This document shows, in pieces, positions 9,461-61,128 of a stretch of DNA of 64,000 nucleotides. The DNA lies in NCBI GenBank assembly GCA_963663165.1, contig OY760175.1, positions 3,168,001 through 3,232,000 on the forward strand. The letters run 5' to 3'. This DNA comes from an uncultured Desulfospira sp. GTDB lineage: Bacteria > Desulfobacterota > Desulfobacteria > Desulfobacterales > Desulfobacteraceae. How positions within the stretch are numbered: position 1 is the stretch's first letter; each line of letters starts with the position of its first letter. The notes under the pieces are model-generated. The model worked only from the letters and a program-made list of their open reading frames with translations, had not been told where the DNA came from and made no database searches. The position numbers and the translations under genes are program-made.

Positions 9461-9690
9461 ATAAGAAACTGGAGACAAGAAACAAGAGGGCGAAGCACCT
9501 GCGGTGCCCAATTTATAGTCTACCGTTGCTGGTATCTTCAGTTTCATTATTCGTTGTGGGCTTGTGGCCCATGGCCGTTATATGAAAGTCTCACTAACAT
9601 CTTGAGAAGACTTTCATTATTTGTTGTGGGCGGTTCTTGGTTGGATAACCGAGACGGCCCGGTTTCTGCCCTTTAGGGTATGGCCGTTAG
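9461..9690 (+). repeat. Two tandem units of a two-hairpin structured repeat (9461-9580 and 9581-9690)
   Basis: Core AWGAAA-[hairpin]-TTTCATNNTTYGTTGTGGGC-[hairpin]-GCCC(R)TGGCCGTTA; also at 26714-26860 and 61040-61128. Confidence 0.9.
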
Positions 9691-9955
9691 TTGATCCTCA
9701 AAGGTCATTTTTAATGGTCGGCGGGCTCCCTTATGATTTTTATTCTGGTGACATGGGGTGCAAATCTGCCAGGAGCTCCATGAATTTGTCAAAATCCATA
9801 GACTGTAATTGTTTTTTAAGACTAAAATGTGCGCCATATTGGCCTCCCTGAAATAAAATTTTCAAGGCGCATAAAAATTTTTGCGTACATTTGTCAATAA
9901 AAAATTCTTAATAAATTTAACGGTTTTTACGCAAGAATCTAACCGAACAACACTG
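9689..9955 (-). mobile_element. Degenerate 5' remnant of an IS4-family element (left end plus broken transposase N-terminus)
   Basis: RBS GGAGG and ATG at 9837. Frameshifted pieces read MAHILV / KKQLQSMDFDKF / GARRPLKMTFEDQL, which I recognise from memory as a deltaproteobacterial IS4 transposase N-terminus. Candidate IR CAGTGTTGTTCGGTTAG at 9955-9939. Confidence 0.6.
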
Positions 9956-9962
9956 GGAATAT

Positions 9963-10026
9963 CCAAGATCTGAAATATTATTTCAGACCATCGGCGGAAA
10001 GTGAGTTCACCTTCCGTTTTCAGAAT
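9963..10026. repeat. ~64-bp dispersed repeat, copy 2
   Basis: Direct copy of 8390-8453. Confidence 0.9.
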
Positions 10027-10170
10027 ATTTTCTCCGAGTTATGCGAATTTTGGATTTGGAACGATCCCTCACACAACCACAATGTGATGTACCTGTATCA
10101 GGTCTGATCGAGTTGAGGCAATAAGAAAAAGCTGAATCCAGATTTCTTCAAAATTCCTTCAATATTTGTG

Positions 10171-10902
10171 TTACACCCGAGATGAACTATAAAACCGGGC
10201 CAGAAGCCGGGGATCCGCCCCCAGGGCATAAAGGCAAATCAGAATCCAGTTTCTCACGGTGGTATAAACAACCCCTTCTTGTTCCCACCGCCTGGCCGAA
10301 GTCGACAGGGCATGGTCAAGGAAAATAGGCCGGATTCTCTTTGCCTTGATCTTTTTCATGATCCCCACATCCTCCATGATGGGCACATCCGGGAAACCGC
10401 CGATGGCGTCAAACAGGGCCTTAGACATAAAAATCCCCTGGTCTCCGTAAGGAATTCGGGACAGCCTGGATCTTAAAGAAGCGGCTTTTTCAATAACACG
10501 AAATATTTGTTTTCCGGAGTTGATATGAAGATCAAAGGCACCGCAGAATCTGTGAAACGTTTTGTCTTTGGTTGAAGCTAAAGAACTGAACCTTTGGGCC
10601 ATCCGGTCAATGGCGGTTTGGTCCAAAACCGTATCCACATGTAGAAAAAAGAGCAGATCACCCGAGGCCTTTGCCGCACCGGCATTCATCTGAACGCCCC
10701 TGCCTTTTTCAGACTCAACCGGAATGACAAACGGGGGAAGGGAACGGCTTCTTTTTAGATGACTTAAGGTCGGGGCACCGGGTTCTCCGTCCACAATAAT
10801 GATCTCAACATCCCGGGGCAATTCAAGCCCCAGCAGCTGGTCCACCCTGGGACAGATTCTTAACGTCTCCCGGTATACCGGAATGATAATGGACAGTTTC
10901 AT
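10171..10902 (-). CDS. GT2 glycosyltransferase, TIGR04283-like (rSAM/selenodomain-associated transferase 2)
   Basis: LSIIIP, GRGVQMNAGA, LFFLHVDT, PYGDQGIF, GGFPDVPIMED, TSARRW. Confidence 0.85.
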   Translation of the reverse strand: MKLSIIIPVYRETLRICPRVDQLLGLELPRDVEIIIVDGEPGAPTLSHLKRSRSLPPFVIPVESEKGRGVQMNAGAAKASGDLLFFLHVDTVLDQTAIDRMAQRFSSLASTKDKTFHRFCGAFDLHINSGKQIFRVIEKAASLRSRLSRIPYGDQGIFMSKALFDAIGGFPDVPIMEDVGIMKKIKAKRIRPIFLDHALSTSARRWEQEGVVYTTVRNWILICLYALGADPRLLARFYSSSRV

Positions 10903-11170
10903 GCCCGCTGTTTACCACAGATTCCCGGCAAAAAACAGCCGCCATGTGAACAGCCCGGGTGAGGCTGTTTTTTTATGCCGAACGGGGGTTGATTTTCTTA
11001 AACAGGTTTTATAAATAAGGTCTTTGGAAAAAACTGCTTTTTGTCCGGTTTCATTTATGGATGGGGGATTAGCATTCTGGAATTGGCGTAAAACCGGCCA
11101 TATATTCAACCGGATGGGGTCATCCCATGGAAAAAATCCCGCAAAAAGACAATCAATTGAGGAAAGGCAA

Positions 11171-11557
11171 ATGACGGATCAGCTTTTATTGGAAAAGGTG
11201 TTTTCACAGGAATTTCTTGACGGACTGCTGCCCCCGGAAAAAAGTGACGATTTCTTTGAAGCGTTATACGGGGATGCTTCAGAAGGAGCCTATGATATCC
11301 GGCTGGTATGCCTTTCCCAGAGGGAAAACCGGGTGGTACTGGCCTTTAACCTGCTCCAGCGGCCGGGCAAGTGCCTGGTGTGCAGCCTGACCTACGGCCT
11401 GCCCAATGTATTCAACCGCCACCCTTTAATCAACCTCAAGGGGATGATCCAGAAAATCGAAGATGCCGGGGTTAAAGTCAAAAACTGGCGCCTTGGAAAT
11501 ACCGAAGAAAACAGCCGGGACCTGCACGTCATTCCCTTTTACCTGGATATTGAATAA
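11171..11557 (+). CDS. Conserved hypothetical protein with CxxC (PGKCLVCSLTYGLP)
   Basis: GAGGAAAGG RBS before ATG at 11171; host-like codon usage. Confidence 0.75.
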   Translation: MTDQLLLEKVFSQEFLDGLLPPEKSDDFFEALYGDASEGAYDIRLVCLSQRENRVVLAFNLLQRPGKCLVCSLTYGLPNVFNRHPLINLKGMIQKIEDAGVKVKNWRLGNTEENSRDLHVIPFYLDIE

Positions 11558-11594
11558 TATTTAACGGCTGGGCCAAACAGCCGCCTTAAAAAAC

Positions 11595-11635
11595 AAAGGG
11601 ATCAAAAACCTTGAAGCATGGTTTTTGATCCCTTT
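11595..11635. terminator. Bidirectional intrinsic terminator between convergent genes
   Basis: AAAGGGATCAAAAACC-N9-GGTTTTTGATCCCTTT. Confidence 0.75.
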
Positions 11636-11662
11636 CTTATTTTGTGCCCGGACGAAACCTCC

Positions 11663-11696
11663 GTGTTTGGACGGTTATGACTATCCGTTCAAACAC
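11663..11696. repeat. Minimal member of the GTGTTTGRAC-ended repeat family
   Basis: GTGTTTGGACGG-N10-CCGTTCAAACAC; same ends at 45128-45277 and 52140-52266. Confidence 0.65.
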
Positions 11697-12223
11697 TATT
11701 TAGGCAGCTTGGGAAATTCCTTGTTCAGAATCTTATTCCATCCATCAGCCTTGTCTTTGACCTTTTTTAGCAGTGCGCCGGTGTTGCCCTGAACGGTTAC
11801 CTTTTCGATGACATCTCCCTGGGCAATACTGTCCACCACTTTCTGGTCGTCTTCGCCTTCCACGCAGCCAAACACGGTGTGCATCCCGTCCAGGTGAGGG
11901 GTTGGGCCGTGGGTGATAAAAAACTGGCTGCCGTTGGTGCCGGGGCCGGCATTGGCCATGGACAGTATCCCGGGCCGGTCATGCTTGAGGTCTTTTTTGA
12001 ACTCATCCTCAAACTCGTACCCCGGACCGCCCATGCCGTTGCCCCAGGGGCAGCCGCCCTGGATCATGAAATCGGAAATCACCCGGTGAAATTTTAATCC
12101 ATTGTAGTACTCGCGCCTGGCAAGGTTCACAAAATTGCCGCAGGTGACGGGGGTCTTGTCTGCAAACAATTTGAGCCGGATGGTGCCCTTGCTGGTTTCC
12201 ATTATTGCTGTAAGATCTGCCAT
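11696..12223 (-). CDS. Cyclophilin-type peptidyl-prolyl cis-trans isomerase
   Basis: [43 protein letters not shown]. Confidence 0.97.
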
Positions 12224-12450
12224 GTCTGTCTCCTTTTTTGATTTACAAGGCTGAAGGGATTTAGGCTGAAGGCTGTTAGGGCTTCAAATCCTGACCGTTC
12301 AGTGTTTTCAACGTTTATTTTGAGCCGGTTCCTGGCGGAAAAGCCAATCCGGCCCGGTGTCTGACCTTTGGGGGTACGCCGTTACTGAAATAAAATCCCT
12401 TTGAAAATAAAGCGTTGTTCAGAAATGTCAAATTTAGACTGAAGGCCGAA

Positions 12451-12752
12451 CAGAGCAATCGCGTGTAAAAAAATTATCCTCGATGGTTTTTATTTACATA
12501 TGCATTCAAGGCCCGCCCCTCTGTGGTGTTTGGCGTAAGCCAGACCTCTGTACCTCTCTGTGGTTTAAAACAAGAAATCCCGAAGGGGTTGAATTATTCT
12601 TCTTTAACCTCCTGGTTTTATAAATTGTGGGCTTCGCCCACTCTTTAAATTTAACCACAGAGGGGCACAGAGAAACACAGAGTTTCAGTGCTGCGCACTG
12701 AAATTGCATTCGGTAAGCTTAAACAATGGGAAAGTTACATGCGATTGCCCTG
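12451..12752. mobile_element. 302-bp MITE with ISAs1-type 18-bp terminal inverted repeats
   Basis: CAGAGCAATCGCGTGTAA ... TTACATGCGATTGCCCTG, flanked by a 10-bp duplication GAAGGCCGAA/GAAGGCTGAA. Second copy at 29806-30330. Confidence 0.85.
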
Positions 12753-12837
12753 GAAGGCTGAAGGCGTTTAGGGTGAAGAATTCTAATTCCTATGGTCCTA
12801 TCAATCTTCAGCCTTCAGCCTATCCACCTTCTTCGGC

Positions 12838-15039
12838 CTATCTGCCTGCCAGCCTCTTGCCAAGCCAGCTTTGGTACCGGCACATGCCCGCCAGGGCCTT
12901 CACGGCCCGTTCCGGGGAAGGAAAGCAAACGGCCTTGTACCGTGTATCCGGATACCGGTAAAGGGTCCGGCTCTCCTCATCGGTCAGGAGACTGACCCCT
13001 AACACCGGTTTTTCATATTTTTGGGTTAAATCCACCACATACCGGATATATTCCTTTTCCGTTTCAAGCATGCTCTTTTTGAAGGCCTCCCCCTGGGCCT
13101 TTGAAACAGCCGGGTCTGACCGGTATACAGAATTGACCAGATTGTTGAGCAGAATTCTCTGGCCATGGACCCCCAAATGGATCACGGCGTCGCACCCGTC
13201 CCACATGAGCAGCTCTTCCAGGCTGGCCTTGGAGACTTCAAGACTGGTTTCTCCCACCAGGTCCACAGGGTTGCCATGGCTCCAGTAATCGGGCAGCACC
13301 TTGTTGAGCCGGTCAACGATATTACCAGACAGGGAAGGGATTTCAAGGCCGTGTTCGGTACACAGATCCGAGGCAATGACCCCCCATCCCCCGCCAAGGG
13401 TCATGATGGCCACCCGGTTTCCTTTGGGCAGGGGCAGGGATGAAAACACAGCGGAAAGGTCTAACAGTTCCATGGGCTGTGACACCTGGATAATCCCGGC
13501 CTGGCGGCATGCGGCATTGAAGACACCGGCATCCGAAGCCATGGCCCCGGTATGGCTGGACGCAGCCTTTTCTCCCATCCGGGTCCGCCCCCCTTTCAGG
13601 ACCACCACCGGCTTTTTCCCCGACAGCCGCCGGGCGCTTTCCAGAAACCGCCGGCCGTTTTTAACACTTTCGATATAAAGCACCACTGTCTTTGTCAGTT
13701 CATCAACCTCGAAGGCTTCCATATAATCTTCAATGGTCACCATGGCCTCATTGCCTGATCCTGAGAACGCCCTGATCCCGATGTCCTGCTGCTCGGCAAA
13801 GGCCAGCAGCTGGGTTCCCATGTTGCCGGACTGGCAGACCAGGGCCGTGGACCCGGCCAGAGGATAGGCATGGGCCGCCGTACAGTAAAACTGGGCATGG
13901 GGATTGCAAACGCCCATGGTATTGGGCCCCAGCACCAGAATCCCGGCTTCCCGGGCCTTTTCCACCACTTGCCTTTCCAGTGTTTCCCCCTCTTTTCCCA
14001 CTTCCCTGAACCCCGAGGTGATCAACAGCATCCCTTTAACGTTTTTGGCCTTAAGTTCCGGGATAATGTCCAATACCCGGGAGGCTGGAATGGTCACCAC
14101 GGCCAGATCGATATCCTCTTCAATCTCAGTCACGGAAGTAAAGGCCTTTTGCCCTAAAAGGATACCGCCTTTGGGGTTGACCAGAAACACCTTGCCCTTA
14201 AAGTCCCGGGACAGGGTGCTGGCGGGCAGCATATGGCCCCATTTGCCGGGGGTGTTGGAGGCGCCCACAAATGCAATGGACTGGGGATAAAAACAGATAT
14301 TGAACGCTTTAAGGTTCGCGGGCCGGACAGGGGCATGGCCTTCTTTGGGGGCGTCAAGCACCACCAGACCGTCCACGGCCACCGGGCTGCCGTCGGGCTG
14401 GACAATCAGGGGATTAATGTCGATCTCCTTTATTTCAGGACAGGCCAGGGCCATATGGGAAAGCCCGCTTAACACCGCTTTAAGGCTCTGGATGTCGGCA
14501 TTTTTTTCTCCCCTGAAAGGGCCCAGCAATTTTCTGGAGACAAGGCCTTTGAGCATATCCTCAATATCGGCATCGCTCAGGGGGGCAACCCTCATGACCA
14601 CATCTTTGAGGGCCTCGGTAAAAATCCCCCCAAGGCCGAACATGATCACAGGCCCGAACTGGGGATCACGGAACATCCCGGCGGTAAATTCACGCTTTCC
14701 CTTTATCATGGGCTGGATCAGAAAATATTCAGGGGACGGGGATGCCGTGGCGGCCATGTCCTCCATTTCAGCTGCCAGAGCCTCTGGACTGGCGATGGCC
14801 AGCCGGACCAGCCCGGACTCGGTTTTATGGGCCATGCCCGGGCAAATCCCCTTTAAAACCACCGGGAATGACAACCCTTTGGTCTTTGCTGCCGCTTTGT
14901 TGGCGGTACGGCAGACCATTTCCTCAACCACCGGGATCTGAAACCATGAAAAAATCTTCTTGGCGTCATCTTCATCTAAAACCGTTACCCCTGCCTCTAA
15001 TTTTGCCCTGATTAAATTTTGGGTCTCATCCGTGTTCAT
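12838..15039 (-). CDS. ADP-forming acetate/acyl-CoA ligase, beta-alpha fusion
   Basis: ATP-grasp domain (AHKTESG, DPQFGPVIMFGLGG, EIDINPL) then CoA-binding domain (VGAS..PGKWG, GPNTMG, QSG, SSHTGAMA, NPVDL). Confidence 0.92.
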   Translation of the reverse strand: MNTDETQNLIRAKLEAGVTVLDEDDAKKIFSWFQIPVVEEMVCRTANKAAAKTKGLSFPVVLKGICPGMAHKTESGLVRLAIASPEALAAEMEDMAATASPSPEYFLIQPMIKGKREFTAGMFRDPQFGPVIMFGLGGIFTEALKDVVMRVAPLSDADIEDMLKGLVSRKLLGPFRGEKNADIQSLKAVLSGLSHMALACPEIKEIDINPLIVQPDGSPVAVDGLVVLDAPKEGHAPVRPANLKAFNICFYPQSIAFVGASNTPGKWGHMLPASTLSRDFKGKVFLVNPKGGILLGQKAFTSVTEIEEDIDLAVVTIPASRVLDIIPELKAKNVKGMLLITSGFREVGKEGETLERQVVEKAREAGILVLGPNTMGVCNPHAQFYCTAAHAYPLAGSTALVCQSGNMGTQLLAFAEQQDIGIRAFSGSGNEAMVTIEDYMEAFEVDELTKTVVLYIESVKNGRRFLESARRLSGKKPVVVLKGGRTRMGEKAASSHTGAMASDAGVFNAACRQAGIIQVSQPMELLDLSAVFSSLPLPKGNRVAIMTLGGGWGVIASDLCTEHGLEIPSLSGNIVDRLNKVLPDYWSHGNPVDLVGETSLEVSKASLEELLMWDGCDAVIHLGVHGQRILLNNLVNSVYRSDPAVSKAQGEAFKKSMLETEKEYIRYVVDLTQKYEKPVLGVSLLTDEESRTLYRYPDTRYKAVCFPSPERAVKALAGMCRYQSWLGKRLAGR

Positions 15040-15633
15040 TTAAGCCTTTACCCCGTTGAAAATAATGTTGGCAATTTCCCTTGACACTTTTTTGACATCC
15101 ACGTCCCTGCCAAAAATGATCTCGCCTAAGCAGGCATGTTCAATGGCCCCCATGATCAGGCGCCGCAGCACGCGGGCGTCGGTATCGGGTTTTAAATGCC
15201 CTTGTTCAATTCCCTGTTCAATGATCTCAAGAAGGACCCGGGCATATTCCTGCACCATGCCATAGGCGCAGGATTCAAAATACGCCGGAGAGTTCCTGAC
15301 CTCCAGCAGCAGAATTTTTGCCAGGACCCGGTTGGCCGCATAGCTTTCAAGGCTGGTGAGAATCATCACCTGAAGTCTGTCCAGGCAGTTTTCCTTTTCA
15401 GACAGGCGGGTTACGATCTTTTCTTGAAAAAAAACAAAGTGTTCGTTAAGCACCTGATACAACAGGTCCTTTTTATCTTTGAAATACTTGTAGATCAGCC
15501 CTTCCGTCACCCCGGCGGTTTCAGAGATTTCAGCTGTTGTAATGGCGTTGAACTCTTTGGTTTTCATCAGCCCGGAAAGGGCTTTCATGATTTTGATTCT
15601 TCCCGGCGGATTGGTGTTCCCTTTGTGTCTCAT
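15040..15633 (-). CDS. TetR/AcrR family transcriptional regulator
   Basis: ITTAEISETAGVTEGLIYKYFKDKKDL helix-turn-helix; abuts the ligase gene. Confidence 0.92.
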   Translation of the reverse strand: MRHKGNTNPPGRIKIMKALSGLMKTKEFNAITTAEISETAGVTEGLIYKYFKDKKDLLYQVLNEHFVFFQEKIVTRLSEKENCLDRLQVMILTSLESYAANRVLAKILLLEVRNSPAYFESCAYGMVQEYARVLLEIIEQGIEQGHLKPDTDARVLRRLIMGAIEHACLGEIIFGRDVDVKKVSREIANIIFNGVKA

Positions 15634-15673
15634 AATGAATTCTCTGCCCTGCTTGATCTGCCTCAATAAAAAG

Positions 15674-15711
15674 GTAAGTAACACTTACTCACAAAAACAA
15701 ATAAATGTCAA
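15674..15711 (-). promoter_or_regulatory. Sigma70-type promoter with probable TetR operator
   Basis: Minus-strand TTGACA at 15711-15706; perfect IR GTAAGT-AAC-ACTTAC (15674-15688) over the -10 region. Confidence 0.55.
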
Positions 15712-15804
15712 GTACGGATATTTGGGAACCCAAGGGAGACCGGATGCACAATCCCCTGCGGAATCGCAAAACCGGTCTCCCGTTTCCGGTCTCCATTCTT
15801 TACA

Positions 15805-16419
15805 TTACGCCCGGATGGGAAAAATCGCGAAGATGGTGGTGGTCCATATGCAGTGGGATACGATCAAAGGGCCCAGGCGCCCCAGGCGCCAGTACATAAA
15901 TCCCCAGAAAAGCCCGGCCACGGCTGCCGCGCCGATGAGCATGAAATTTAAAGCACACAGGTGTATGGCCGTATAAAAAAAAGCGGCGGCAAGCCACCCT
16001 CTAAGCCCGCCTAACCGCCGGGACAGCCGCTCCTGCACAAAGCCGCGCCAGAAAATCTCCTCACACGGGCCGGTAATGAAAAAAAGCAGCAGGCAGATCA
16101 GCCATGCCGGCGTACCATCGCCTTTGGCATAGATGCTGCCTACCTGGGACACGGCAAAGGGAAAAAGCCATTTGCTGACAAGGTCCCCTATAAAGAAAAT
16201 GGCGTACAGCACTGCCGCAGACCCCGCTCCCCAGACAAGATCCCCTGGCCGGAACCGGAACCATTGACCGGGGCCAAACCCGAAAAAAGCTGCCAAAACG
16301 CTCAGACACAGGGCCGAGGCACTGATTTTTATCCAGAAGTTTCCCCACCCCACGGCAAAAGAAAAAAACCAGAGAACAAACGCGGCACCGATGCAGATGG
16401 CCAGCTGTTTTGTCTTCAC
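15805..16419 (-). CDS. CPBP (CAAX/Abi) family intramembrane metalloprotease
   Basis: EEIFWRG, FYTAIH, SHCIW; hydrophobic. Confidence 0.9.
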   Translation of the reverse strand: MKTKQLAICIGAAFVLWFFSFAVGWGNFWIKISASALCLSVLAAFFGFGPGQWFRFRPGDLVWGAGSAAVLYAIFFIGDLVSKWLFPFAVSQVGSIYAKGDGTPAWLICLLLFFITGPCEEIFWRGFVQERLSRRLGGLRGWLAAAFFYTAIHLCALNFMLIGAAAVAGLFWGFMYWRLGRLGPLIVSHCIWTTTIFAIFPIRA

Positions 16420-17315
16420 AGGAGAAACACCTTGTCCAGCAGGATTGAAATCAACAGCAGGCCCCCAAAAGCGGTATCGAATTTCGCTGTCCTGGCATCG
16501 GCATCCGACGGTGCTGTTCCGGAAAACATTCTAAAAACAGGCCAGGCCAGGGGAAGGGACAACATTACCAGCAAAGACCAGGGCGACAGGGGGCCTAAAA
16601 CCGACATGGCCACAATGGCAAAAAAGGATCCGGCCACCAGGCCTAAAAACAATTTTTTACCCTTGTCATACCCCATGCGTACGGAAATGGTGGATATGTT
16701 CTGCTGCCGGTCGTATTCCGTATCCCGCAGGTTGTTGGCCAGAAGCACCAGGCTCACCAGAAGCCCTAAGGGGATGGAAACCAGGGCCAGGGACCAGGAC
16801 AGGTGCTGCATCTGGACAAAATACGCCCCCTGCATGGCCAAGGGCCCCCAGATTAAAAAAACCAGGGGCTCGCCAAGGGTATGGTATTTAAGACTGATTG
16901 GCGGGGCCGTATAAATCAACCCTAAAAAAACCCCGGCAAGGCCAAAGGCCAGTACGGCCAGTCCCCTGGTAACGGTAAGCCAGATGCCAATGCCAATCCC
17001 CAGAGCATATAACAAAGCCGCCGCCGCCAGCACATGGCCAAGATTGATGTCATCAAAGGCCAGGGGATGGGGCCGGTATTGGGTTGTGGGAGCGTTGGGC
17101 ACATCCACCCGGTTTTTAACGTCAAAATAATCGTTCATCAGATTGGACGCCCCGTGGATGCAGATCATGGCCATCAGGGCCGCCAGGCACAGACCTAAAG
17201 AAAACCCCTGGCCGATGGCCCAGAAACTGCCGGCAAAAACAGATATGACACTCATGGTAAACGACCAGGGCCGGGTGGCCAGGATAAGATCCCTGTGCAA
17301 CTTTTTCATTTTCAA
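16416..17315 (-). CDS. menA: 1,4-dihydroxy-2-naphthoate polyprenyltransferase (UbiA family)
   Basis: ATRPWSF, NLMNDYFD, YTAPPISLKY..LGE, LLANNLRD...D. Confidence 0.85.
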   Translation of the reverse strand: MKMKKLHRDLILATRPWSFTMSVISVFAGSFWAIGQGFSLGLCLAALMAMICIHGASNLMNDYFDVKNRVDVPNAPTTQYRPHPLAFDDINLGHVLAAAALLYALGIGIGIWLTVTRGLAVLAFGLAGVFLGLIYTAPPISLKYHTLGEPLVFLIWGPLAMQGAYFVQMQHLSWSLALVSIPLGLLVSLVLLANNLRDTEYDRQQNISTISVRMGYDKGKKLFLGLVAGSFFAIVAMSVLGPLSPWSLLVMLSLPLAWPVFRMFSGTAPSDADARTAKFDTAFGGLLLISILLDKVFLL

Positions 17316-19392: not shown

Positions 19393-19396
19393 ATTT

Positions 19397-20743: not shown

Positions 20744-20747
20744 ACGC

Positions 20748-26713: not shown

Positions 26714-26860
26714 ATAAGAAACTGGAGACAAGAAACAAGAGACAAGAGGGCGAAGCACCTGCGGTGCCCAATTTATAGTCTACCGTTGCTGGTATCTTCA
26801 GTTTCATTATTCGTTGTGGGCGGTTCTTGGTTGGATAACCAAGACGGCCCGTGGCCGTTA
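26714..26860 (+). repeat. Two-hairpin structured repeat, copy 3
   Basis: First ~105 bp nearly identical to 9461-9561 (one extra heptamer); second hairpin nearly identical to 9623-9660. Confidence 0.92.
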
Positions 26861-27156: not shown

Positions 27157-27504
27157 TTATTCTATAAGCTGCTCAACAGTTAATTCCATCGCATCTGCCA
27201 ATTTGATCAAGGAGCTTTTCCGGGGATTGGCATCCGGTCTCTCTATCCGGGCCAATGCCGGTTGCTTTATCCCTGCTTTAGCAGCAAGTTCCGCCTGGGT
27301 CAGACCTAAATATTCCCGCCAAGCTTTTACAAGGCTGTCGCCTCTGACATTTGCCTTTACCACTTCGTGGGGAAACCATACGTCAGATTCGTCCGGCTCA
27401 ATACCGTCAACCAGTACCTGGTATTCATCCCATGGAATGACGGCAAAAGCTGGTTTTCCACCTTGCTCAATAATTTGGACATTATTGGTAAGTACAGTTG
27501 TCAC
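27157..27504 (-). CDS. XRE/HigA-like HTH antitoxin
   Basis: VQIIEQGGKPAFAVIPWDEY N-terminus; VKAWREYLGLTQAELAAKAGIKQPALARIE HTH; overlaps the toxin gene. Confidence 0.9.
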   Translation of the reverse strand: MTTVLTNNVQIIEQGGKPAFAVIPWDEYQVLVDGIEPDESDVWFPHEVVKANVRGDSLVKAWREYLGLTQAELAAKAGIKQPALARIERPDANPRKSSLIKLADAMELTVEQLIE

Positions 27505-27745
27505 GTTTTTTTACCTCCTGAATGGCGATTATCTTAACCTGCTCTTCGTCGTCAAAAAGGACTCGATAGCGGCCTACCCTCATTCTGTAATCGTATTTGT
27601 GTTTTTTCAGCGCCTTAACATCAAGGCCTTTACAAGCGGGGAACTCTGCCAACTGGTCAACACTTTCAAAAATGGCTTCCTGGTACTCTTTGGGAACCTT
27701 TTTCATTTGTTTGCGGGCTTTGTTGCTCCATCGAATCGTTTTCAT
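27482..27745 (-). CDS. RelE/ParE (HigB-like) type II toxin
   Basis: IRWSNKARKQMKK, DVKALK, YRMRVGRYRVLF, IQEVKKRD. Confidence 0.92.
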   Translation of the reverse strand: MKTIRWSNKARKQMKKVPKEYQEAIFESVDQLAEFPACKGLDVKALKKHKYDYRMRVGRYRVLFDDEEQVKIIAIQEVKKRDNCTYQ

Positions 27746-30377: not shown

Positions 30378-30390
30378 TTATAAGATTTTT

Positions 30391-30571
30391 TTGTCCAGGT
30401 GCGTGTAAAAACGCTTGGCCACTCATCTACGGCCAAAGGGAATCCCGTGAAACTCGGGAATGGGCCCGCCGCTGTAACCGGAGACAATTTCGTGCAAAAA
30501 ACACTGGCAGTAACCGCTGGGAAGTGGCATGGAAAAGGATGACCCGGAAGTCAGAAGACCTGCCTGGACAA
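30391..30571 (+). ncRNA. Cobalamin (AdoCbl) riboswitch
   Basis: AGGTGC...AAAGGGAATCCCGTGAAACTCGGGA..GGGCCCGCCGCTGTAAC...CACTGG...CTGGGAAG...AAGTCAGAAGACCTGCC (B12 box); closing stem TTGTCCAGG/CCTGGACAA. Confidence 0.95.
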
Positions 30572-30632
30572 TGTGCCGATATTCCCGTGGACAGGGATGC
30601 ACGACAGATCCAGCTGGATAGTTTGGGACATC

Positions 30633-52266: not shown

Positions 52267-52269
52267 TAT

Positions 52270-53091: not shown

Positions 53092-53289
53092 CTCTTTTCC
53101 TCCTATGAAATTTTTTATGTCTGAACAAAAACCGTTCATGAGTAGGTTTAATACTTAGCATAATATTTTTAAATGGCAAGGAATATTTTCCAGCCATGTA
53201 AGGCCTTGCCGTGGGCTTGACTTGCCTTAAATTTCCGTCGTATGATTTAATTTTTTCAAACCGCTTAAAAAAATAAAGGCCCCATAAGG

Positions 53290-53928: not shown

Positions 53929-55010
53929 AACATATTTTTCAGTCCTTGTTTTCCCCCAAAAAACATTCAGAGGAAAGTGGCCTTTCCGCGTTCAACCGGC
54001 AGCGGGTTGAAACCGAAGATGTCCAGTTTATTGACCATGGCATCACCACCATGCCATTGGAGGATATCATCGGCAGCGTAGGCAAATACGATGATTTCGA
54101 CTCTCAGTTCAGGCCAAGAAAGCATGTTGACAGCAACCGGTTTAACAGCATCAAACAGGCCATGAGGGAGGGAAAGCCCATCCCCCCGGTTAAATTGTAC
54201 CAGATCCGGAACGAGTATTATGTGGTGGATGGAAACCACCGGGTCGCGGCCGCAAAAGAGCTTGGCTGGACGGAAATCTCAGCCAAAGTCGTGGAGCTGC
54301 TGTCCAGTGAAAACACCATGGAAAACATGCTCTACCTGGAAAGGAAAAAATTTTACATCGCCACAGGCCTGCCCGAAGAGATCCAGCTGACCGAAGTGGG
54401 AAAATACAACTATCTCGAGTCCCAGATCAAAAAGCACCAGGTCTTCCTGGCCGGACAGTCCGGCAGGGACTGTGACCGGCAAAAAGCCGCCCGGGACTGG
54501 TACAATACCATCTACACCCCCCTTGCCACCATTATCGGCAACAGCGGGCTCCTCAAGTACTTCCCCAACCGGACCGTGGGGGACCTGTACACCTATATTG
54601 CCTACCACCACTGGGAAAGAAGCTCCAACCGGCGGTTCGGCATCGGCATTGACCAGCTCATTCCCAAAAGCATGGAAGGGTTCCGGAAAGCCATGCTGGA
54701 GAAAAAAACCCCGGATTACCCGGAAATGAAACGGAGCATCACCGCCTTTGTGCTGGTGAATACAGACCCCAAATTAGAGTATCAGATCGTTGACCTGTTG
54801 TTTGACATTGAAGAGATCAAGGAGGTCCATGCGGTTCACGGCCCGGTGGATCTCCTGGTCAAAGCGGTGATCAAACGGGACCTTCTGGCTTCCGATGCCG
54901 AGGTCATCGCTGAATTTGTAGAGATGCAAATCCGCCAGCTGGACGGGATCACCCGGACCCAGACCATGATCCCGGGACTGTCCAAGGTAAAAGAAGGCAT
55001 CATCTGTTAA
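53925..55010 (+). CDS. ParB/Srx-like domain protein with helical middle (DUF4032-like) and C-terminal Lrp/AsnC ligand-binding domain
   Basis: IIGSVGKY.DFD..F.P; PPVKLY...YYVVDGNHRVAAAK; C-terminal AFVLV...EVHAVHGPVDLLVK...IRQLDGITRTQTMI; ATGA overlap with the phosphoesterase. Confidence 0.8.
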   Translation: MKHIFQSLFSPKKHSEESGLSAFNRQRVETEDVQFIDHGITTMPLEDIIGSVGKYDDFDSQFRPRKHVDSNRFNSIKQAMREGKPIPPVKLYQIRNEYYVVDGNHRVAAAKELGWTEISAKVVELLSSENTMENMLYLERKKFYIATGLPEEIQLTEVGKYNYLESQIKKHQVFLAGQSGRDCDRQKAARDWYNTIYTPLATIIGNSGLLKYFPNRTVGDLYTYIAYHHWERSSNRRFGIGIDQLIPKSMEGFRKAMLEKKTPDYPEMKRSITAFVLVNTDPKLEYQIVDLLFDIEEIKEVHAVHGPVDLLVKAVIKRDLLASDAEVIAEFVEMQIRQLDGITRTQTMIPGLSKVKEGIIC

Positions 55011-55139
55011 TATGGGGGCTTAGGCTGAAGGGAAGCCTGCCGAAACCATCTTTACCTTCGGTATGAGCCCCTTCAGCCCTCAGCCTATCCACCTTAAGCC
55101 CCATTGTAACTGTCTGAAAAAAATAAAATAATTAAATCG

Positions 55140-55168
55140 TTGACAGCTTTTTATTTTAGCTCTAAGTT
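55140..55168 (+). promoter_or_regulatory. Candidate sigma70 promoter of the glutamate synthase operon
   Basis: TTGACA-N17-TAAGTT in an AT-rich spacer. Confidence 0.5.
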
Positions 55169-55221
55169 TAAGGCTTTGGAAAAATATATATTCTTTTGTA
55201 CAGTAACAAGGAGAGTTTTAC

Positions 55222-56352
55222 ATGTGTCGTCTGTTTGCACTTACCAGCAGTGATCCGGTTTCCCCCATGCTGGCCATCAAGGCACTGGATGTCATGAAAG
55301 AAGGACATGACGGATCAGGCGTAGGCCTGCTGCTTCAGGATCTTGGCGGACCCTTTGAAGAAATCAAGGACTGCCCTATTTTATCCGGCATCTTTACGGA
55401 AGAAGGGCTTCGCCGCCTGGACCTTTTCATGATGGATATGGGGTTTTTGACCAAATATAAAATCTCCTTGAAAGTTCCCAAAAAATGCGTGGAAGGCACC
55501 CCGAGAAGGGGGGTCTACCTGATCCGGGCCTATGAACTTCCCGAGCACTGGGACCAGTATACCCAGGAAGAAATTGAAAGACGGTTTCTGGAAATCCGGG
55601 TGAAACTCAAGGAAATGGGTGAAGAAAAACAGGACATGATTGTCTTTTCTTTCTGGCCCGACGCCATCATGATCAAGGAAATCGGTGATCCCATGCAGCT
55701 GGCCGAATACTTAGGCCTGGACAGAAAGGAACTCAGGGCCCGGGTGATCATGGCCCAGGGGCGGCAGAACACCAACTATGCCATCAACCTTTATGCCTGC
55801 CATCCGTTTTTTATCAGCGGGTACTGCACCATGACCAACGGTGAGAACACGGCGTTTATCCCCATTAAAGATTTTCTGATGTCCAGGGGGATTCCAGGGT
55901 ATACCGGCTACCAGTCCGACTCCGAAGTCTTTGCCCATATTCTGCATTTTTCCATGATGGAACTTGGTTTAGGGATTGAAGGGTACAAACATGTGATTAC
56001 CCCCCTTCAAAGGGAAGCCCTTGAAATTCATCCCAATGCAGACTTCTTATTTCACCTGAAACGGACCTGCCGGCCCCTGATCATTGACGGGCCCAACTGC
56101 GTTATCGGCACCCTGCCGGACCATTCCCTGTTCATGGTTCAGGACAGAAAAAAACTGCGCCCCGGCGTTGTGGGCGGCAACCCCGGCATGTTTGGATTTT
56201 CATCGGAAATCTGCGGCCTGGATGCCGTGATCCCCGACCGGGACACCTCAAAAGATATTCAACCCATGCACCTTGACACCGCTATTGTTGGCCCTGAACG
56301 CCAGGAGGTAAATATATGTCGTCAAACAGAAGCCTTGAGCCTTCCTCTTTAA
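55222..56352 (+). CDS. Glutamate synthase, class II glutamine amidotransferase subunit
   Basis: N-terminal nucleophile Cys2 (MCRLF), RQNTN, ACHPF, NGE, SDSE, DRKKLRP. Confidence 0.88.
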   Translation: MCRLFALTSSDPVSPMLAIKALDVMKEGHDGSGVGLLLQDLGGPFEEIKDCPILSGIFTEEGLRRLDLFMMDMGFLTKYKISLKVPKKCVEGTPRRGVYLIRAYELPEHWDQYTQEEIERRFLEIRVKLKEMGEEKQDMIVFSFWPDAIMIKEIGDPMQLAEYLGLDRKELRARVIMAQGRQNTNYAINLYACHPFFISGYCTMTNGENTAFIPIKDFLMSRGIPGYTGYQSDSEVFAHILHFSMMELGLGIEGYKHVITPLQREALEIHPNADFLFHLKRTCRPLIIDGPNCVIGTLPDHSLFMVQDRKKLRPGVVGGNPGMFGFSSEICGLDAVIPDRDTSKDIQPMHLDTAIVGPERQEVNICRQTEALSLPL

Positions 56353-57950
56353 GCTTAAACGATCTGCCCTGGCAGATTCAGTACAATAATGACCGCTGCA
56401 CCCTTTGCGGCCAATGCACGGCGGTTTGTCCGGTAAAGGCCATTGAGCTGACGGTTTTCAGAAAAAGAAACCTGAGGACCTCGGTGAACCAGCCCCACAG
56501 CCATTCCAACGAGTACACCACCTTTTACGGCATCAGCCAGAAGACCCGGGTGGAAAATGCCTGTATCGGCTGTGCCATGTGTACCATGGTCTGTCCCAAT
56601 GACGCCATCCGGCCCGTCAAAAATCAAGGCCTTGACCGCTTAAAATTCCATATCAACCAAAAGGGGATCCCCAGACGGCGCGGGGGCCGCAGAAATTCAT
56701 CTTTTTCCGTGCTGGACCGGATTAAGTTCACCCGGATCTCCATGCTCACAGACCCGGCCCTGGATGCGGGCCGTCACGAATTTGAAATGCGGACCCTCCT
56801 GGGACGGGTGCTGCCCCCCAGAGAAAACATGAAGCGCCTTCAGGAAAAGGGCTGGGTCCCGCCGGTCCGGGAAATCTATCCGTTGATCATCGGAGGCATG
56901 TCCTTTGGCGCCCTGTCTCCCACCATGTGGGAAGGGCTTCAGATGGGGGTGGCCTACTTAAATGAAGAAATGAACATGCCCGTGCGCATGTGCACCGGAG
57001 AAGGGGGCTGTCCCCCCCGGCTGCTGAGATCCCGCTTTCTAAAATATGTGATTCTCCAGATTGCCTCAGGGTATTTTGGATGGGATGAAATCATCCACGC
57101 CATTCCCCATATGAAAGAAGACCCCTGCGCCGTTGAAATCAAATACGGCCAGGGCGCCAAGCCCGGGGACGGCGGCCTTTTAATGTGGCACAAGGTCAAC
57201 AAACTTATTGCCGCCATCCGGGGGGTTCCCCAGGGCGTGAGCCTGCCCTCTCCCCCCACCCACCAAACCCAGTACTCCATTGAGGAGTCCGTGGCCAAGA
57301 TGATTTTGTCCATGTCCATGGCCTGGGGATTCAGGGTGCCGGTTTACCCGAAAATTTCGGCGTCCTCCACCTCCCTTGCCGTCATGAACAACTTGACCCG
57401 GAACGAGTATGCCGGGGGCCTGGCCATTGACGGAGAAGACGGGGGAACCGGCGCGGCCTATTCCGTATCCATGGACCACATGGGCCACCCCATTGCCAGC
57501 TGTATCCGGGACAACTACCTGAACCTCACCAAGCTGGGCAAACAAAACGAGATTCCCATCTTTGCCGGCGGCGGCATCGGAAAGAACGGCAACCTGGCCG
57601 CCAATGCCGCCGCCCTGATTATGCTGGGCGCCTCGGGTGTCCAGATCGGCAAGTATGTCATGCAGGCGGCGGCCGGATGTGTGGGAACCGAAGAAGACCG
57701 GTGCAACGTTTGCAACGTAGGGGTATGCCCCAAGGGAATCACCTCCCAGGACCCCAGGCTTTACCGGCGCCTGGACCCCGAAGACGTGGCCCAGCGGCTG
57801 GTGGATCTGTTTGTCTCCTTTGATACGGAACTCAAAAAAATCGTGGCCCCCCTGGGACGGTCCACATCTTTGCCCATCGGAATGTCCGATGCCCTTGGAA
57901 TTGACGACCATGCTGTTGCTCAACGCCTCAGTATCAAGTACGTGGTTTAA
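56316..57950 (+). CDS. Glutamate synthase FMN-binding subunit with N-terminal 2x[4Fe-4S] domain
   Basis: CxxCxxCxxxCP twice; MSFGALS, TGEGG, QIASGYFG, EIKYGQGAKPGDGG, GGTGAA, CPKGITSQDP. Confidence 0.93.
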   Translation: MSSNRSLEPSSLSLNDLPWQIQYNNDRCTLCGQCTAVCPVKAIELTVFRKRNLRTSVNQPHSHSNEYTTFYGISQKTRVENACIGCAMCTMVCPNDAIRPVKNQGLDRLKFHINQKGIPRRRGGRRNSSFSVLDRIKFTRISMLTDPALDAGRHEFEMRTLLGRVLPPRENMKRLQEKGWVPPVREIYPLIIGGMSFGALSPTMWEGLQMGVAYLNEEMNMPVRMCTGEGGCPPRLLRSRFLKYVILQIASGYFGWDEIIHAIPHMKEDPCAVEIKYGQGAKPGDGGLLMWHKVNKLIAAIRGVPQGVSLPSPPTHQTQYSIEESVAKMILSMSMAWGFRVPVYPKISASSTSLAVMNNLTRNEYAGGLAIDGEDGGTGAAYSVSMDHMGHPIASCIRDNYLNLTKLGKQNEIPIFAGGGIGKNGNLAANAAALIMLGASGVQIGKYVMQAAAGCVGTEEDRCNVCNVGVCPKGITSQDPRLYRRLDPEDVAQRLVDLFVSFDTELKKIVAPLGRSTSLPIGMSDALGIDDHAVAQRLSIKYVV

Positions 57951-57962
57951 AAGGAGGCTGCC

Positions 57963-60293
57963 ATGAAATCCAGCGACTATATTTTTGTACCCGGCAAAAG
58001 AGAAGAAAAAAGAATTCCCTCCAGGGTATTAGAAGAGACCATCCACCAGCACATCAGGGGTGGACAACGAAAACTTGAAGTTGAGGCATTCGGCCAGCAC
58101 GGTATTGGCGGAAGGCTCTGGGATGCCGGACAGGACCCCACCCATATCCGGGTCATCGGCCATCCGGGCCAGCGGGCCGGTTCTTTGGGAACACCCAACA
58201 CCACCATTGAAATCATGGGACCGGCGTCGGATGACGTGGGCTGGCTGAACGCCGGGGCACAGATCATTATCCACGGCAGCGCCTCTAACGGGATCATGAA
58301 CGGGGCGGCCCAGGGAAAGGTTTATGTGGGCGGCTCTATCGGGGCCCGGGGCATGACCATGACCAAACACAACCCCCGGTTTGAGCCCCCGGAACTCTGG
58401 GTTCTAGGGGCTGCAGGAGATTATTTCGGCGAGTTCATGGCCGGCGGCATTGCCGTGATCTGCGGCCATGGATTCGGCACCGACAACTCCATCATGGGGT
58501 ACCGCCCCCTGGTGGGCATGGTGGGCGGCAAGGTCTTTGTCCGGGGAAGCGTGGACGGGTTCAGTAAAAAAGATGCCCGAATTGCCCCCCTGTCCGACCA
58601 GGACTGGAGCTGGTTGTTGGCCAACCTGAAAACCTTTCTGGAAAACATCGACAAGGCCGACCTGTTCAATTCCCTGTCCCACCGGCCGGACTGGCAGCTT
58701 CTGACTTCCAAATCCCCTCAGGATAAAGCCGCCAGCGGGCAGCAGCTTTCCATGGCCGCATTCAGGGCCGAAGTCTGGGACCGGGAACTGGGCCGGGGCG
58801 GATTGATCGGAGACCTTCAGGAAACTGAACAGGGAACGGTTCCGTTAATTACCAAAGCAGAGTTCCGGCGGTATGTTCCGGTATGGGAACAGGGCAGGTA
58901 CCAGTCTCCCTGCCAGGCCGCATGCCCCACGGGCATTCCGGTCCAGGACCGGTGGGCCATGGTCCGTGCCGACAACATTGACGAAGCCATTTCCATGGGC
59001 CTGGAATATACCCCCTTCCCGGCCACGGTCTGCGGCTATCTTTGCCCAAGCCCCTGTATGGCCTCCTGTACCCGGAATATGGAAAACATGAACCCCATTG
59101 ATGTCAGGCTTCTAGGCCGTGCCGGGGAAAAGGTAACGCCCCCGGCACCAGCGCCCAAAACCAACAAACGGGTGGCCGTCATCGGGGCCGGCCCCGGCGG
59201 TATTGCCGCGGCATGGCACCTGACCCTCAGGGGCCACACAGCCGTGATCTTTGACGGCGGGGACAAACTTGGCGGAAAGATTTCCTCGGTCATCCCGGAA
59301 TCCCGGATACCTAGGGAAACCCTGGAATCCGAACTGAACCGAATCAAAGAGCTGGTCCCCGATATCCGCCTAAAGCAGCCCATTGATGACAAGGAGTTTT
59401 CCAGAATCAAGTCTGACTACGAGTTCGTTGTTGTGGCGGCGGGGGCCAGTAAACCAAGGACACTGCCTGTCCCCGGCATAGAGCATGCCGTGTTTGCCAA
59501 TGATTTTCTTGAAAATGCCAAACGTGTCAATTTCAAGCCGGGCAAACGGATCGTGATTATCGGGGCCGGAAACGTAGGCTGCGATGTGGCCACCGAAGCC
59601 CACCGGTTAGGGGCAAAAGACATTACCCTGATCGATGTCCAGAAACCGGCAGCATTTGGCAAGGAAAAAGAGGATGCTGAAAAATGCGGCGCCAAATTCA
59701 AATGGCCCCTGTTTACAAAGGAAATCTCAAAAAGAGGGGTTACCCTCAAGGATGATACCCTTCTGCCGGCCGATACCGTGGTCATTTCCATTGGGGATGT
59801 TCCGGATCTTACCTTTCTTGGCAAGCAGGTTGAGCTGAACAACGGCCTTGTGGGCGTGGATGAATTTAACCGGACCTCAGACCCCAAAGTGTTTGCCATC
59901 GGCGACATTGTGGCGCCCGGGCTGATCACTGATGCCATTGGCATGGGAAAACGGGCCGCCCTCAATATTGACCGGCTCCTTGCAGGGGAAAAACCGGATC
60001 AGGTCAAAGAGGGCACCATGATTGCCAAAGACCGGGTCAAACTCGAATACTATGATCCCAAAAAAGATGCCATGAACATGGCAGAGTGCGGGGCGGACTG
60101 CGCTTCCTGCGGCAACTGCCGGGACTGCGGCATTTGTGTGGCCGTCTGCCCGGAAGGGGCCATTGAACGGGTCGCCCTTGAAGATAACGGATTTGAATAT
60201 ACCGTGGATGAAACCAAGTGCATTGGGTGCGGATTCTGCGCCGGTGCCTGCCCTTGCGGGATATGGGCCATTGTTCCCAATACCCCATTGTAG
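57963..60293 (+). CDS. Glutamate synthase GXGXG domain fused to a GltD-like FAD/NAD(P) oxidoreductase and ferredoxin
   Basis: GQHGIGG and GXGXG repeats; PCQAACP, CGYLCPSPC; two GxGxxG motifs; VFAIGD; C-terminal 2x[4Fe-4S]. Confidence 0.9.
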   Translation: MKSSDYIFVPGKREEKRIPSRVLEETIHQHIRGGQRKLEVEAFGQHGIGGRLWDAGQDPTHIRVIGHPGQRAGSLGTPNTTIEIMGPASDDVGWLNAGAQIIIHGSASNGIMNGAAQGKVYVGGSIGARGMTMTKHNPRFEPPELWVLGAAGDYFGEFMAGGIAVICGHGFGTDNSIMGYRPLVGMVGGKVFVRGSVDGFSKKDARIAPLSDQDWSWLLANLKTFLENIDKADLFNSLSHRPDWQLLTSKSPQDKAASGQQLSMAAFRAEVWDRELGRGGLIGDLQETEQGTVPLITKAEFRRYVPVWEQGRYQSPCQAACPTGIPVQDRWAMVRADNIDEAISMGLEYTPFPATVCGYLCPSPCMASCTRNMENMNPIDVRLLGRAGEKVTPPAPAPKTNKRVAVIGAGPGGIAAAWHLTLRGHTAVIFDGGDKLGGKISSVIPESRIPRETLESELNRIKELVPDIRLKQPIDDKEFSRIKSDYEFVVVAAGASKPRTLPVPGIEHAVFANDFLENAKRVNFKPGKRIVIIGAGNVGCDVATEAHRLGAKDITLIDVQKPAAFGKEKEDAEKCGAKFKWPLFTKEISKRGVTLKDDTLLPADTVVISIGDVPDLTFLGKQVELNNGLVGVDEFNRTSDPKVFAIGDIVAPGLITDAIGMGKRAALNIDRLLAGEKPDQVKEGTMIAKDRVKLEYYDPKKDAMNMAECGADCASCGNCRDCGICVAVCPEGAIERVALEDNGFEYTVDETKCIGCGFCAGACPCGIWAIVPNTPL

Positions 60294-60308
60294 CCCATTC
60301 GGGCAGCA

Positions 60309-60385
60309 TTTAGCTTTTAGCTGTTAGCGCCTGTAGCCGCCGATTTCAAAAGGTGCTAGCTAACAGCTAATTGCTAACAGCTAAC
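60309..60385. repeat. Heptamer (TTAGCTK/GCTAAYW) tandem palindrome between convergent genes
   Basis: TTTAGCTTTTAGCTGTTAGC ... GCTAGCTAACAGCTAATTGCTAACAGCTAA. Confidence 0.8.
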
Positions 60386-60471
60386 GGCTTAATAAAAACC
60401 AGAACAAACGATCTGATCATTTATATATGGATAAATCCAAAGGAATTTGATTCCACTGATTTTCTTTGAGG

Positions 60472-60990
60472 CTACCGGGAGACGTCCCCATCTGCGTTGG
60501 GATCCTTGAAATCCCAGTATTTTGTTATCGTACCGACCGACCCGCCCATGTCATCCATCCCGTTATATTCCCATTCAATACGGCTGTAGTTAAGCGAGAT
60601 CTCTTCAACCGGGCGCCCCCCCTGGCCGAATGAATCTGAAATATTGATACTGGTGATGATGACTTCCCAAAGCTTAATTTGATACAACGGATGCAGCGTG
60701 CCGGACATGGTGGTGGTGATGACTTTGAGTTCTGCAGTTTCAATATCCCTCCTGTGGCAGCACAGATCCATGAGGGGAAGGCTGGATGAGTCAATAACCT
60801 TTGAGATCCTCAAATCGCCATGCTGGACCGCACCGATTCTCCGGCTATCGCCGCTGCCCATCATACTGGACCGGTCCACACTGGTTGCGACATTGTGGGA
60901 AAACCCTTCAATTCGGATCCACCCCGCGTGTGCCATGTCTTGGCTTTCCCCCTCTATGCCCTCAATTTTCATAAAAATGGCATTGGACAT
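60472..60990 (-). CDS. hcp: Type VI secretion tube protein Hcp (orphan)
   Basis: IFMKIEGIEGES.D..H.GWI; ISKVIDSSS..L; YQIKL..VIITSI; PVEEISLNYSRIEWEY; YWD. Confidence 0.88.
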   Translation of the reverse strand: MSNAIFMKIEGIEGESQDMAHAGWIRIEGFSHNVATSVDRSSMMGSGDSRRIGAVQHGDLRISKVIDSSSLPLMDLCCHRRDIETAELKVITTTMSGTLHPLYQIKLWEVIITSINISDSFGQGGRPVEEISLNYSRIEWEYNGMDDMGGSVGTITKYWDFKDPNADGDVSR

Positions 60991-61039
60991 GTTGCTTCTC
61001 CTTTTGTGATAGCCTTTAGCATGCTGATAAAGCTATTTA

Positions 61040-61128
61040 TATGAAAGAATCTGCAAGCTGCTGTAATTCTTTCATGCTTTGTTGTGGGCTGAACCGGATT
61101 AACAATCCAATCGGCCCGTGGCCGTTAG
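61040..61128 (+). repeat. Two-hairpin structured repeat, copy 4 (divergent stems)
   Basis: TATGAAAGAAT..ATTCTTTCATGCTTTGTTGTGGGCTGA..GGATT-AAC-AATCC..TCGGCCCGTGGCCGTTAG. Confidence 0.85.

Follow-up and report, generated by a model that had tools for sequence, protein, structure and literature searches.

Two-hairpin units in the window

The stretch of DNA analysed here (the window) comprises 64,000 nucleotides from an uncultured Desulfospira sp. (GenBank assembly GCA_963663165.1, contig OY760175.1, forward-strand positions 3,168,001 to 3,232,000) and carries four copies of a short unit with two hairpins. All four were located no more than 2 bases from the positions given in a preliminary description of the window, the ends being off by 1-2 bases. 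In this study, we traced the units to the ends of an insertion sequence (IS) of the IS110 family, and found that one guide of its bridge RNA matches the units in an unusual place, on the same strand and across a hairpin. The units and their parts are as follows.

9461-9579, + strand: unit 1, a long-loop miniature of 119 nt; an IS right end, a filler of ~45 nt enclosed by the sub-terminal inverted repeat, and an IS left end; ends at the TT core 9578-9579, with a run of five T ahead of the unit at 9456-9460
9580-9688, + strand: unit 2, a short-loop miniature of 109 nt, head to tail with unit 1 and followed by AGT
26714-26859, + strand: unit 3, a long-loop miniature of 146 nt with a full hairpin 2, followed by AAT
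61039-61126, + strand: unit 4, a short miniature of 88 nt upstream of hcp, followed by AGT
61039-61076, + strand: stem 1 of unit 4, corresponding to the pair of sub-terminal inverted repeats (ATGAAA...TTTCAT) found in the parent IS
61081-61086, + strand: GTTGTG in the far arm of hairpin 2 of unit 4, complement of the 5' donor guide CACAAC
9553-9558, 9623-9628, and 26813-26818, + strand: the identical GTTGTG motif in the other units
61117-61126, + strand: near arm CRTG-N3-G of unit 4 with the TT recombination core

Unit 1 is placed in the 5' part of a - strand frame (9047-9547) and has a minimal hairpin 2 with almost no inner stem 2. Its junction with unit 2 is TT-ATATG, the sequence read by the resident target guide, and unit 2 has an extra hairpin of 19 nt inserted ahead of its end. 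In unit 4, the first bases of stem 1 are the right-donor site of the 3' donor guide, the loop of stem 1 stands where the parent has its transposase and bridge RNA, and the G preceding the core agrees with the first handshake base in the target loop.

The parent IS110 element

The 6.74-Mb source genome (G000) contains three identical copies of a 419-aa IS110 transposase, encoded in an element of 1740 bases (C1:4366465-4368204). The protein matches NF033542 above the cut-off (E 1.7e-70) and possesses the DEDD RuvC-like and Tnp domains, and its residues D22, E73, D109, D112, and S310 align with the catalytic motifs of IS621. When reversed, the left end of this element is the second half of the unit (TTTCA-N3-TTY-GTTGTG, a hairpin, and CATG-N3-G-TT), its right end is the first bases of the unit, and its inverted repeats ATGAAA/TTTCAT are stem 1. 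As the ends match in reversed orientation, the strand designated + in the preliminary description is antisense to the transposase. By its sequence, the unit is an IS right end joined to a left end, with the transposase and the bridge RNA deleted and no coding capacity. The preliminary description had recommended a search for a linked transposase or recombinase, and the enzyme indicated by the ends of the unit is the IS110 DEDD/serine bridge recombinase, whose three copies lie elsewhere in the genome. The unit can also be assigned in part to a described family of IS ends, being built from those of the IS110 family.

Ends of this type also occur in relatives of the transposase with 92% to 51% identity, several of which have miniatures directly attached. 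Relatives L154, L155, L141, and L176 terminate in the same CATGGCCG-TT as the miniatures, and miniatures abut IS copies in genome G005 and in metagenome loci. Judging from these ends and from the guides described below, the units were almost certainly moved by this IS110 clade, likely in trans by its bridge-RNA-guided recombinase.

The bridge RNA and its target guide

A conserved block of 130 bases located ~80 bases past the stop codon of the transposase is the bridge RNA. Its two inner stems are backed by double changes (8 of 11 pairs) and were the only stems given by RNAalifold, the outer stems being drawn by eye. A model of this RNA hit only the three IS copies in the source genome and nothing in the window. 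The third IS copy (C1:4961844-4963870) contains ~2 kb of other DNA that splits the 3' stem of the bridge RNA, and its right end lies at ~4963900.

The 3' target guide, in the first loop, predicts the DNA following the TT core. Over 45 distinct guide/flank pairs, which derive from 75 parsed rows, the number of matching pairs is 45, 45, 44, 23, and 12 at positions 1-5, a total of 169 of 225 bases compared with 83.7 ± 6.4 after shuffling (0/10000), and the effective target is ~3 bases plus the core. The 3' donor guide, in the second loop, co-varies with the right end in eight rows (ATAC four times, ATTC, ATTT, ATGTT, and GGAT); a further four rows were mis-parsed and one is a mismatch. Both 3' guides pair with the + strand. 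The base after the target guide is identical to the donor base beside the core in 23 of 30 elements (11.9 ± 2.4 when shuffled), and the invariance of the G before TT is understandable, because handshake pairing needs the same base in the target loop and in the donor. This match places the predicted strand exchange on the + strand. The sequence read by the resident target guide, TT-ATA, is also found at the start of the unit itself, which offers a direct route to head-to-tail arrays.

In relatives with 36-42% identity (L031, L238, L241, L246, L277-L280, L282, and L284), the bridge RNA lies upstream of the transposase, whereas it lies downstream in L237, L239, L240, and L253 (41%) and in all closer relatives; the RNA has thus switched ends within one clade.

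The donor guide and the folding of the units

The 5' donor guide CACAAC is the complement of GTTGTG on the + strand, which belongs to the far arm of hairpin 2 and lies 20-60 nt inside the element. The DNA beside the core, CRTG-N3-G with its free positions, is not matched by this guide. Guides and ends were compared in relatives drawn from genomes, metagenomes, and plasmids, with identities as low as 36%; a covariance-model alignment of their bridge RNAs gave 42 hits in 47 sources, 40 of which were parsed, with misses kept. The guide agrees with the far arm at 169 of 200 bases, as opposed to 71 of 200 when placed beside the core in whichever register fits best. When reduced to 21 distinct states, the far arm gives 77 of 105 identities against 58.1 ± 3.7 shuffled (0/20000, in a count that takes kin as independent), while the near arm gives 35 against 39.0 ± 2.2 and is no better than chance. 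In fact, guide and far arm change together, through the states ACAAC, ACAAA, ACCAC, ACCCC, and ACCCT. In 36 of the 40, the core and the guide site are separated by a hairpin with an energy of -2 kcal/mol or lower, and its folding puts GTTG opposite positions 3-6 from the core. These comparisons make it highly probable that the 5' donor guide pairs with the same strand across hairpin 2, and suggest, as the best reading of the data and a reasonably likely one, that a folded single strand is the working donor substrate.

Both stems can be followed in a set of 44 diverse units, in which 91% of the pairs are standard. Changes on both sides of a pair occur in 43 cells, mostly in stem 1, compared with 22.8 ± 3.7 in shuffled sets; the covarying stems noticed earlier in the window are borne out. 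The outer T.G and G.T pairs are invariant (44/44), an invariance that carries no weight as those columns were fixed by the selection pattern. These outer arms had been thought to pair through wobbles only, but GTTGTGGGC/GCCCRTGGC holds 5-6 Watson-Crick pairs besides 3-4 G.T pairs. The G.T pairs follow in part from the far arm, fixed by the guide, lying opposite the conserved CATG, and in distant clades they are not kept, as the outer arm there no longer makes wobble pairs; the G.T bias is thus weaker evidence than the preliminary description had assumed. The bias of wobbles and folding towards the + strand, also pointed out in the preliminary description, stands out when RNA energies are used (71 of 77 hairpins). 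It is small when they are replaced by DNA energies, with 60 of 77 miniature hairpins folding better on the + strand, at -9.95 vs -9.23 kcal/mol. Positions that are unpaired in the model vary freely, with ~1.9 bits at N2, at N3, and at the second base before the core.

Size and spread of the family

Although only four copies had been noticed in the window, the element is present in ~300 units, or ~0.5% of the source genome. An nhmmer profile gave 328 hits in 262 clusters covering 30.7 kb, with only two hits inside frames of at least 200 codons. The core given in the preliminary description has 123 exact matches, 240 with one mismatch, and 292 with two mismatches (155 on the + and 137 on the - strand). 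A relaxed core, TT[TC]CA-N3-TT-N-GTTGTG, has 240 exact matches compared with 2 for the reversed pattern, so the units are not due to chance. Among clusters with several units, 65 of 69 have a head-to-tail layout. A clustering of 2766 neighbouring frames across the source genome revealed no recurrent partner gene family beside the units; the top clusters were the unit's own translations and a repeated transposase gene that contains one unit.

The units are common among related sulfate reducers. Within the same family, 56 of 84 genomes have the short-unit pattern, as do 32 of 316 other genomes of the class, where there are mostly 1-4 matches each; with the reversed control, all 401 genomes together yielded 4 matches. 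Several relatives contain 100-350 matches per genome, and named carriers belong to the Desulfobacterales, e.g., Desulfocicer vacuolatum and Desulfobacter curvatus. Of the 84 family genomes, 15 have a transposase hit, and 13 of these also have the pattern; among the 316 others, 8 have a hit. Genomes G001, G013, and G022 carry 282, 81, and 20 pattern matches, respectively, without a transposase or bridge-RNA hit of the clade in a recheck that scored 150 candidates per genome; their units are stranded miniatures. Viral contigs contained no relative, and among phage records there are four at 30-32% identity.

In co-directional intergenic gaps of the source genome, 74 of 99 units are antisense to both flanking genes (p 8.5e-7), while target-like sites are balanced (1588:1537). 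We can only guess that this excess is due to selection against a stable + strand RNA hairpin within transcripts.

Insertion sites

A paralogous site without the insert was found for 13 of 163 clusters tested in the source genome, four of which merely compare a single unit with a tandem. The nine informative empty sites are all TT-A, with no extra T in one, one extra T in four, and two in four. G001 lacks unit 4 at the orthologous site, where the flanks are 88-94% identical; units 1-3 have no orthologous flanks in either G001 or G002, and hence no empty site to compare. Tandem junctions contain 2, 3, or 4 T in 64, 25, and 6 of 97 pattern matches, some of which are not true junctions, and this number is independent of subtype. 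A variable T count is unusual for the IS110 family, and slippage of an A-rich guide on the T run is our guess at its cause.

The right flanks of 125 non-tandem units in the source genome are mainly ATA (41), AGT (39), and ATT (22), compared with backgrounds of 1.0, 0.2, and 1.5%. While the resident guide reads only ATA, relatives from other genomes possess AGT and ATT target guides, which indicates that several mobilisers have acted over time. Such relatives likely placed many of the copies in this genome, including units 2 and 4 of the window.

Units are also recurrently inserted at one position, TT-AGT, of another dispersed repeat, for which 45 empty paralogues exist, and in a second repeat family. 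Examples of insertions into dispersed repeats are given below.

C1:3581528, C1:3651133, C1:3683464, and C1:2380590 of the source genome: units within dispersed repeats

A proposed fold-back donor and its alternatives

The folded single strand that we favour as donor substrate would operate as follows. The + strand would be the strand that is cut and exchanged, equivalent to the "top" strand of IS621. Hairpin 2, together with the stem 1 inverted repeats across the circle junction, would fold this strand into a pseudo-duplex, in which the far arm replaces the missing bottom strand. The recombinase would then join the donor to any TT followed by three bases read by the guide (ATA for the resident, AGT and ATT for relatives), with the joining register slipping by a base within the T run. 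New copies would land head to tail and thereby build arrays, because the start of the unit is itself what the resident guide reads. The idea in the preliminary description of a structure-selected, single-stranded hairpin substrate of a recombinase comes close to this evidence, and the strand that it chose is the one paired by the 3' guides; the enzyme, however, is an IS110 recombinase rather than a HUH enzyme. A stronger proposal is that an attC-like folded single strand is the obligate donor of a broad IS110 clade that includes sulfate reducers, Bacillota, Burkholderiales, and Acidobacteriota, with both donor guides of the bridge RNA read on it and the 90-base units as minimal natural substrates. 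We consider this possible, and are slightly more doubtful of it than convinced.

Several observations weigh against a folded single-stranded donor or against the data behind it. A first automatic parse of guides and far arms was noisy, with 84 identities compared with 75.6 ± 3.8 shuffled (222/10000). In the final count, 11 of 40 rows scored 3/5 or less, all of them retained; L259, L266, L197, and L234 have wrong or off-register left-end picks, and L246, L238, L241, L236, L252, and L282 need a 1-nt bulge or a mismatch. The shuffle counts treat kin as independent and hence overstate. With DNA energies, the + strand is the lower in only 23 of 45 IS left ends, the two strands are nearly equal at the junction (-12.5 vs -12.4), and a miniature junction in its most stable fold is without the outer G.T stem. 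The units also have no replichore bias (132/256), as checked at the suggestion of the preliminary description. No circle junction was seen in the contigs of four sequencing runs, a kind of data that is unable to reveal one, and small-share RNA runs do not count as evidence of expression. There is little sign that the 5' target guide is used (among seven offsets tried, the best has z 3.7 and a second z 3.0), and the 5' guides of the bridge RNA may thus be of little weight. In addition, 43 of the 56 pattern-bearing family genomes have no transposase hit, the near-complete G001, G013, and G022 included. From the literature, minicircles were still detectable when the palindrome of ISPpu9 was mutated (PMC12288879), and CazIS110-1 prefers double-stranded DNA (dsDNA) ~20-fold at the LD-RT junction (10.1101/2025.10.25.684509).

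Some of these points would suit a double-stranded donor better. The miniature and the guide site would be the same, but hairpin 2 would be a cruciform arm or be looped out on the protein, and no free single-stranded circle would be required. The Watson-Crick pairs of the inner stems, the near-equal folding of both strands with DNA energies, the missing replichore bias, and the dsDNA preference of CazIS110-1 at one junction are all consistent with this alternative. Yet the stems are short and, at a mean of about -4.5 kcal/mol, weak for spontaneous extrusion; the extra pairs favour the + strand in most miniature hairpins; and single-strand excision of exactly this strand has been reported for two relatives, IS621 and CazIS110-1. 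A double-stranded donor is unlikely in our view, though it is the most serious competitor. An ordinary IS110 miniature using half-match recombination, in which the 3' guides and protein contacts (CRTG and the inverted repeats) suffice, appears more unlikely still. Here, the far-arm match would serve something else, e.g., pairing with a putative antisense RNA transcribed from the left end, comparable to Asr9/Ssr9 of ISPpu9. Half-match activity has been reported for IS621, the ISPpu9 hairpin mutant still circularises, and the limited use of the 5' target guide, the strong strand bias with RNA energies, and the antisense excess in co-directional gaps all fit such an element. Against it, the far-arm match has a length of only 5-8 nt, lies exactly in the slot of the left donor guide, and co-varies over five states, and its distance from the inverted repeat is constant.

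An independent structured non-coding RNA (ncRNA), or a hairpin substrate of a HUH enzyme (Y1/RAYT or IS91) or of a reverse transcriptase (RT), is largely refuted and seems very improbable. Both the ncRNA and the HUH substrate had been put forward in the preliminary description, and the two hairpins, the one-strand wobble bias, the variable T run at the 5' junction, and the 14 Y1 and 11 RT matches in the source genome speak for such an origin. However, no Rfam family fits the units, either at the gathering score or by E-value, none of the Y1 genes is bounded by a unit, both ends are those of an IS110 element, and the bridge-RNA guides account for the target, the core, and the conserved motifs. 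The relation to REP/REPIN sequences and their RAYT enzymes was examined at 13 Y1 loci, where nearby units bound no gene. One Y1 transposase (C1:3023500-3024320) has GGGGTCA-type inverted repeats of its own with stuttered ends and lies 600 bases from two units, to which it is unrelated. The RT route, prompted by the variable T run, was dropped after the IS110 ends had explained the unit. Compared by eye with the consensus features of self-cleaving ribozymes, attC sites, and IS200/IS605 elements, the units did not fit any of these layouts.

Comparison with known systems

In integrons, one strand of attC folds into a pseudo-duplex recombination site with a variable interior, and such units form arrays; its tyrosine recombinase reads extrahelical bases, with no guide RNA. 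The present units resemble attC in the proposed folded-strand site with a variable interior and in their arrays, but have no conserved RYYYAAC/GTTRRRY box pair.

IS110 miniatures are already known, and the same-strand donor guide across a hairpin is the unusual part. MITEPpu9 (the ssr9 module) of Pseudomonas putida KT2440 is an IS110-family miniature of ISPpu9, with 8 copies in repetitive extragenic palindromic (REP) targets (PMC12288879). Like MITEPpu9, the present units are gene-less, bounded by IS110-family ends, and found alone, beside the IS, and in tandem, and they share with it and ISPpu9 a dinucleotide core and a short palindrome just inside the left end (PMC12288879). In contrast to the 8 copies in REP targets, there are ~300 copies and a 5-base target here; long sub-terminal repeats, of which the consulted part of that paper reports none, are present; and bridge-RNA guides are mapped to the left end, which is likewise not done in the consulted part. 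The left end of ISPpu9 has a similar order of core, spacer, and hairpin, and is likened to the present clade by end layout alone. When the bases just inside its core were changed, the recombination site was mis-set (PMC12288879).

The parent element is similar to IS621 and ISCro4 in its DEDD and serine recombinase, two-loop bridge RNA, core dinucleotide, handshake bases, and 3' guides on the top strand (PMC11208160, PMC11208158, PMC13626964; PDB 8wt6, 9t56), although the protein similarity to IS621 is distant (E 3.5e-9). The top strand of IS621, to which its 3' guides bind, is the first to be cut and exchanged (PMC11208158). However, the left donor guide of IS621 pairs with the bottom strand beside the core, whereas the one described here has its match on the top strand, beyond a hairpin and 20-60 nt away. 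Canonical donor recognition of the IS621 type is not seen, as the identities beside the core (71/200) are no better than shuffled. Furthermore, unlike in IS621 and ISCro4, the junction length varies by 0-2 T, and the target is ~3 bases plus the core. IS621 is reported to release a single-stranded circle (10.64898/2026.08.31.748434) and CazIS110-1 to excise and integrate the top strand (10.1101/2025.10.25.684509); a fold-back donor fits both.

With ISEc11, ISKpn4, and ISPa11 of the IS1111 group, the element shares sub-terminal inverted repeats and a non-coding region downstream of the transposase, and in both cases the match to the transposase-sense strand lies 5' of the other match (PMC11187229). 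In contrast, the seekRNA matches of those elements are on opposite strands (PMC11187229), and the left inverted repeat of the present element is 30-60 nt inside, with the hairpin outside it. In relatives at ~40% identity, the same RNA precedes the gene, which is unlike the IS1111 group and blurs the group line. A DNA hairpin also aids site recognition by the IS110 element ISPpu10, but that hairpin is in the target, has guides on opposite strands, and merely raises efficiency, whereas the present one is in the donor and supplies the partner of the guide (10.64898/2026.03.19.712850).

Tandem non-coding units beside IS110 genes were noted in a 2026 survey (10.64898/2026.08.14.744561). The consulted parts of Durrant et al. 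(PMC11208160), of the directionality paper (PMC13626964), and of a language-model survey using 25-nt donor windows (10.64898/2026.10.21.760802) contain no same-strand donor reading. More generally, we found no description of same-strand donor guides in the openly accessible literature, a scope outside which subscription journals, ISfinder, and preprint supplements fall.

Whether IS110 circles are single- or double-stranded is a current open question, on which preprints of 2025-2026 disagree in detail. If a donor guide can pair only after fold-back, the strand question would be tied to the sequence and the reaction would have a built-in direction. The miniatures represent a minimal donor of 90 bases, with hundreds of natural variants that mark read and free bases, and an IS110 derivative that is dispersed through the genome in the manner of REP sequences, having been inserted under several guide specificities over time. 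If the fold-back reading is true, it would provide a different donor design rule for genome editing, possibly with single-stranded cargo, and an obligate folded donor would amount to an RNA-programmable integrase of single-strand cargo with a target of about five bases.

Other features of the window

The preliminary description had placed all units next to accessory DNA. The hcp gene and a toxin-antitoxin pair are present, the latter consisting of a ParE-type toxin and a helix-turn-helix (HTH) antitoxin (27157-27745, - strand); the supposed sulfotransferase fragment and IS4 remnant gave no Pfam hit. The only Rfam match in the window is a cobalamin riboswitch (30380-30581), which lies ahead of TonB-dependent receptor genes.

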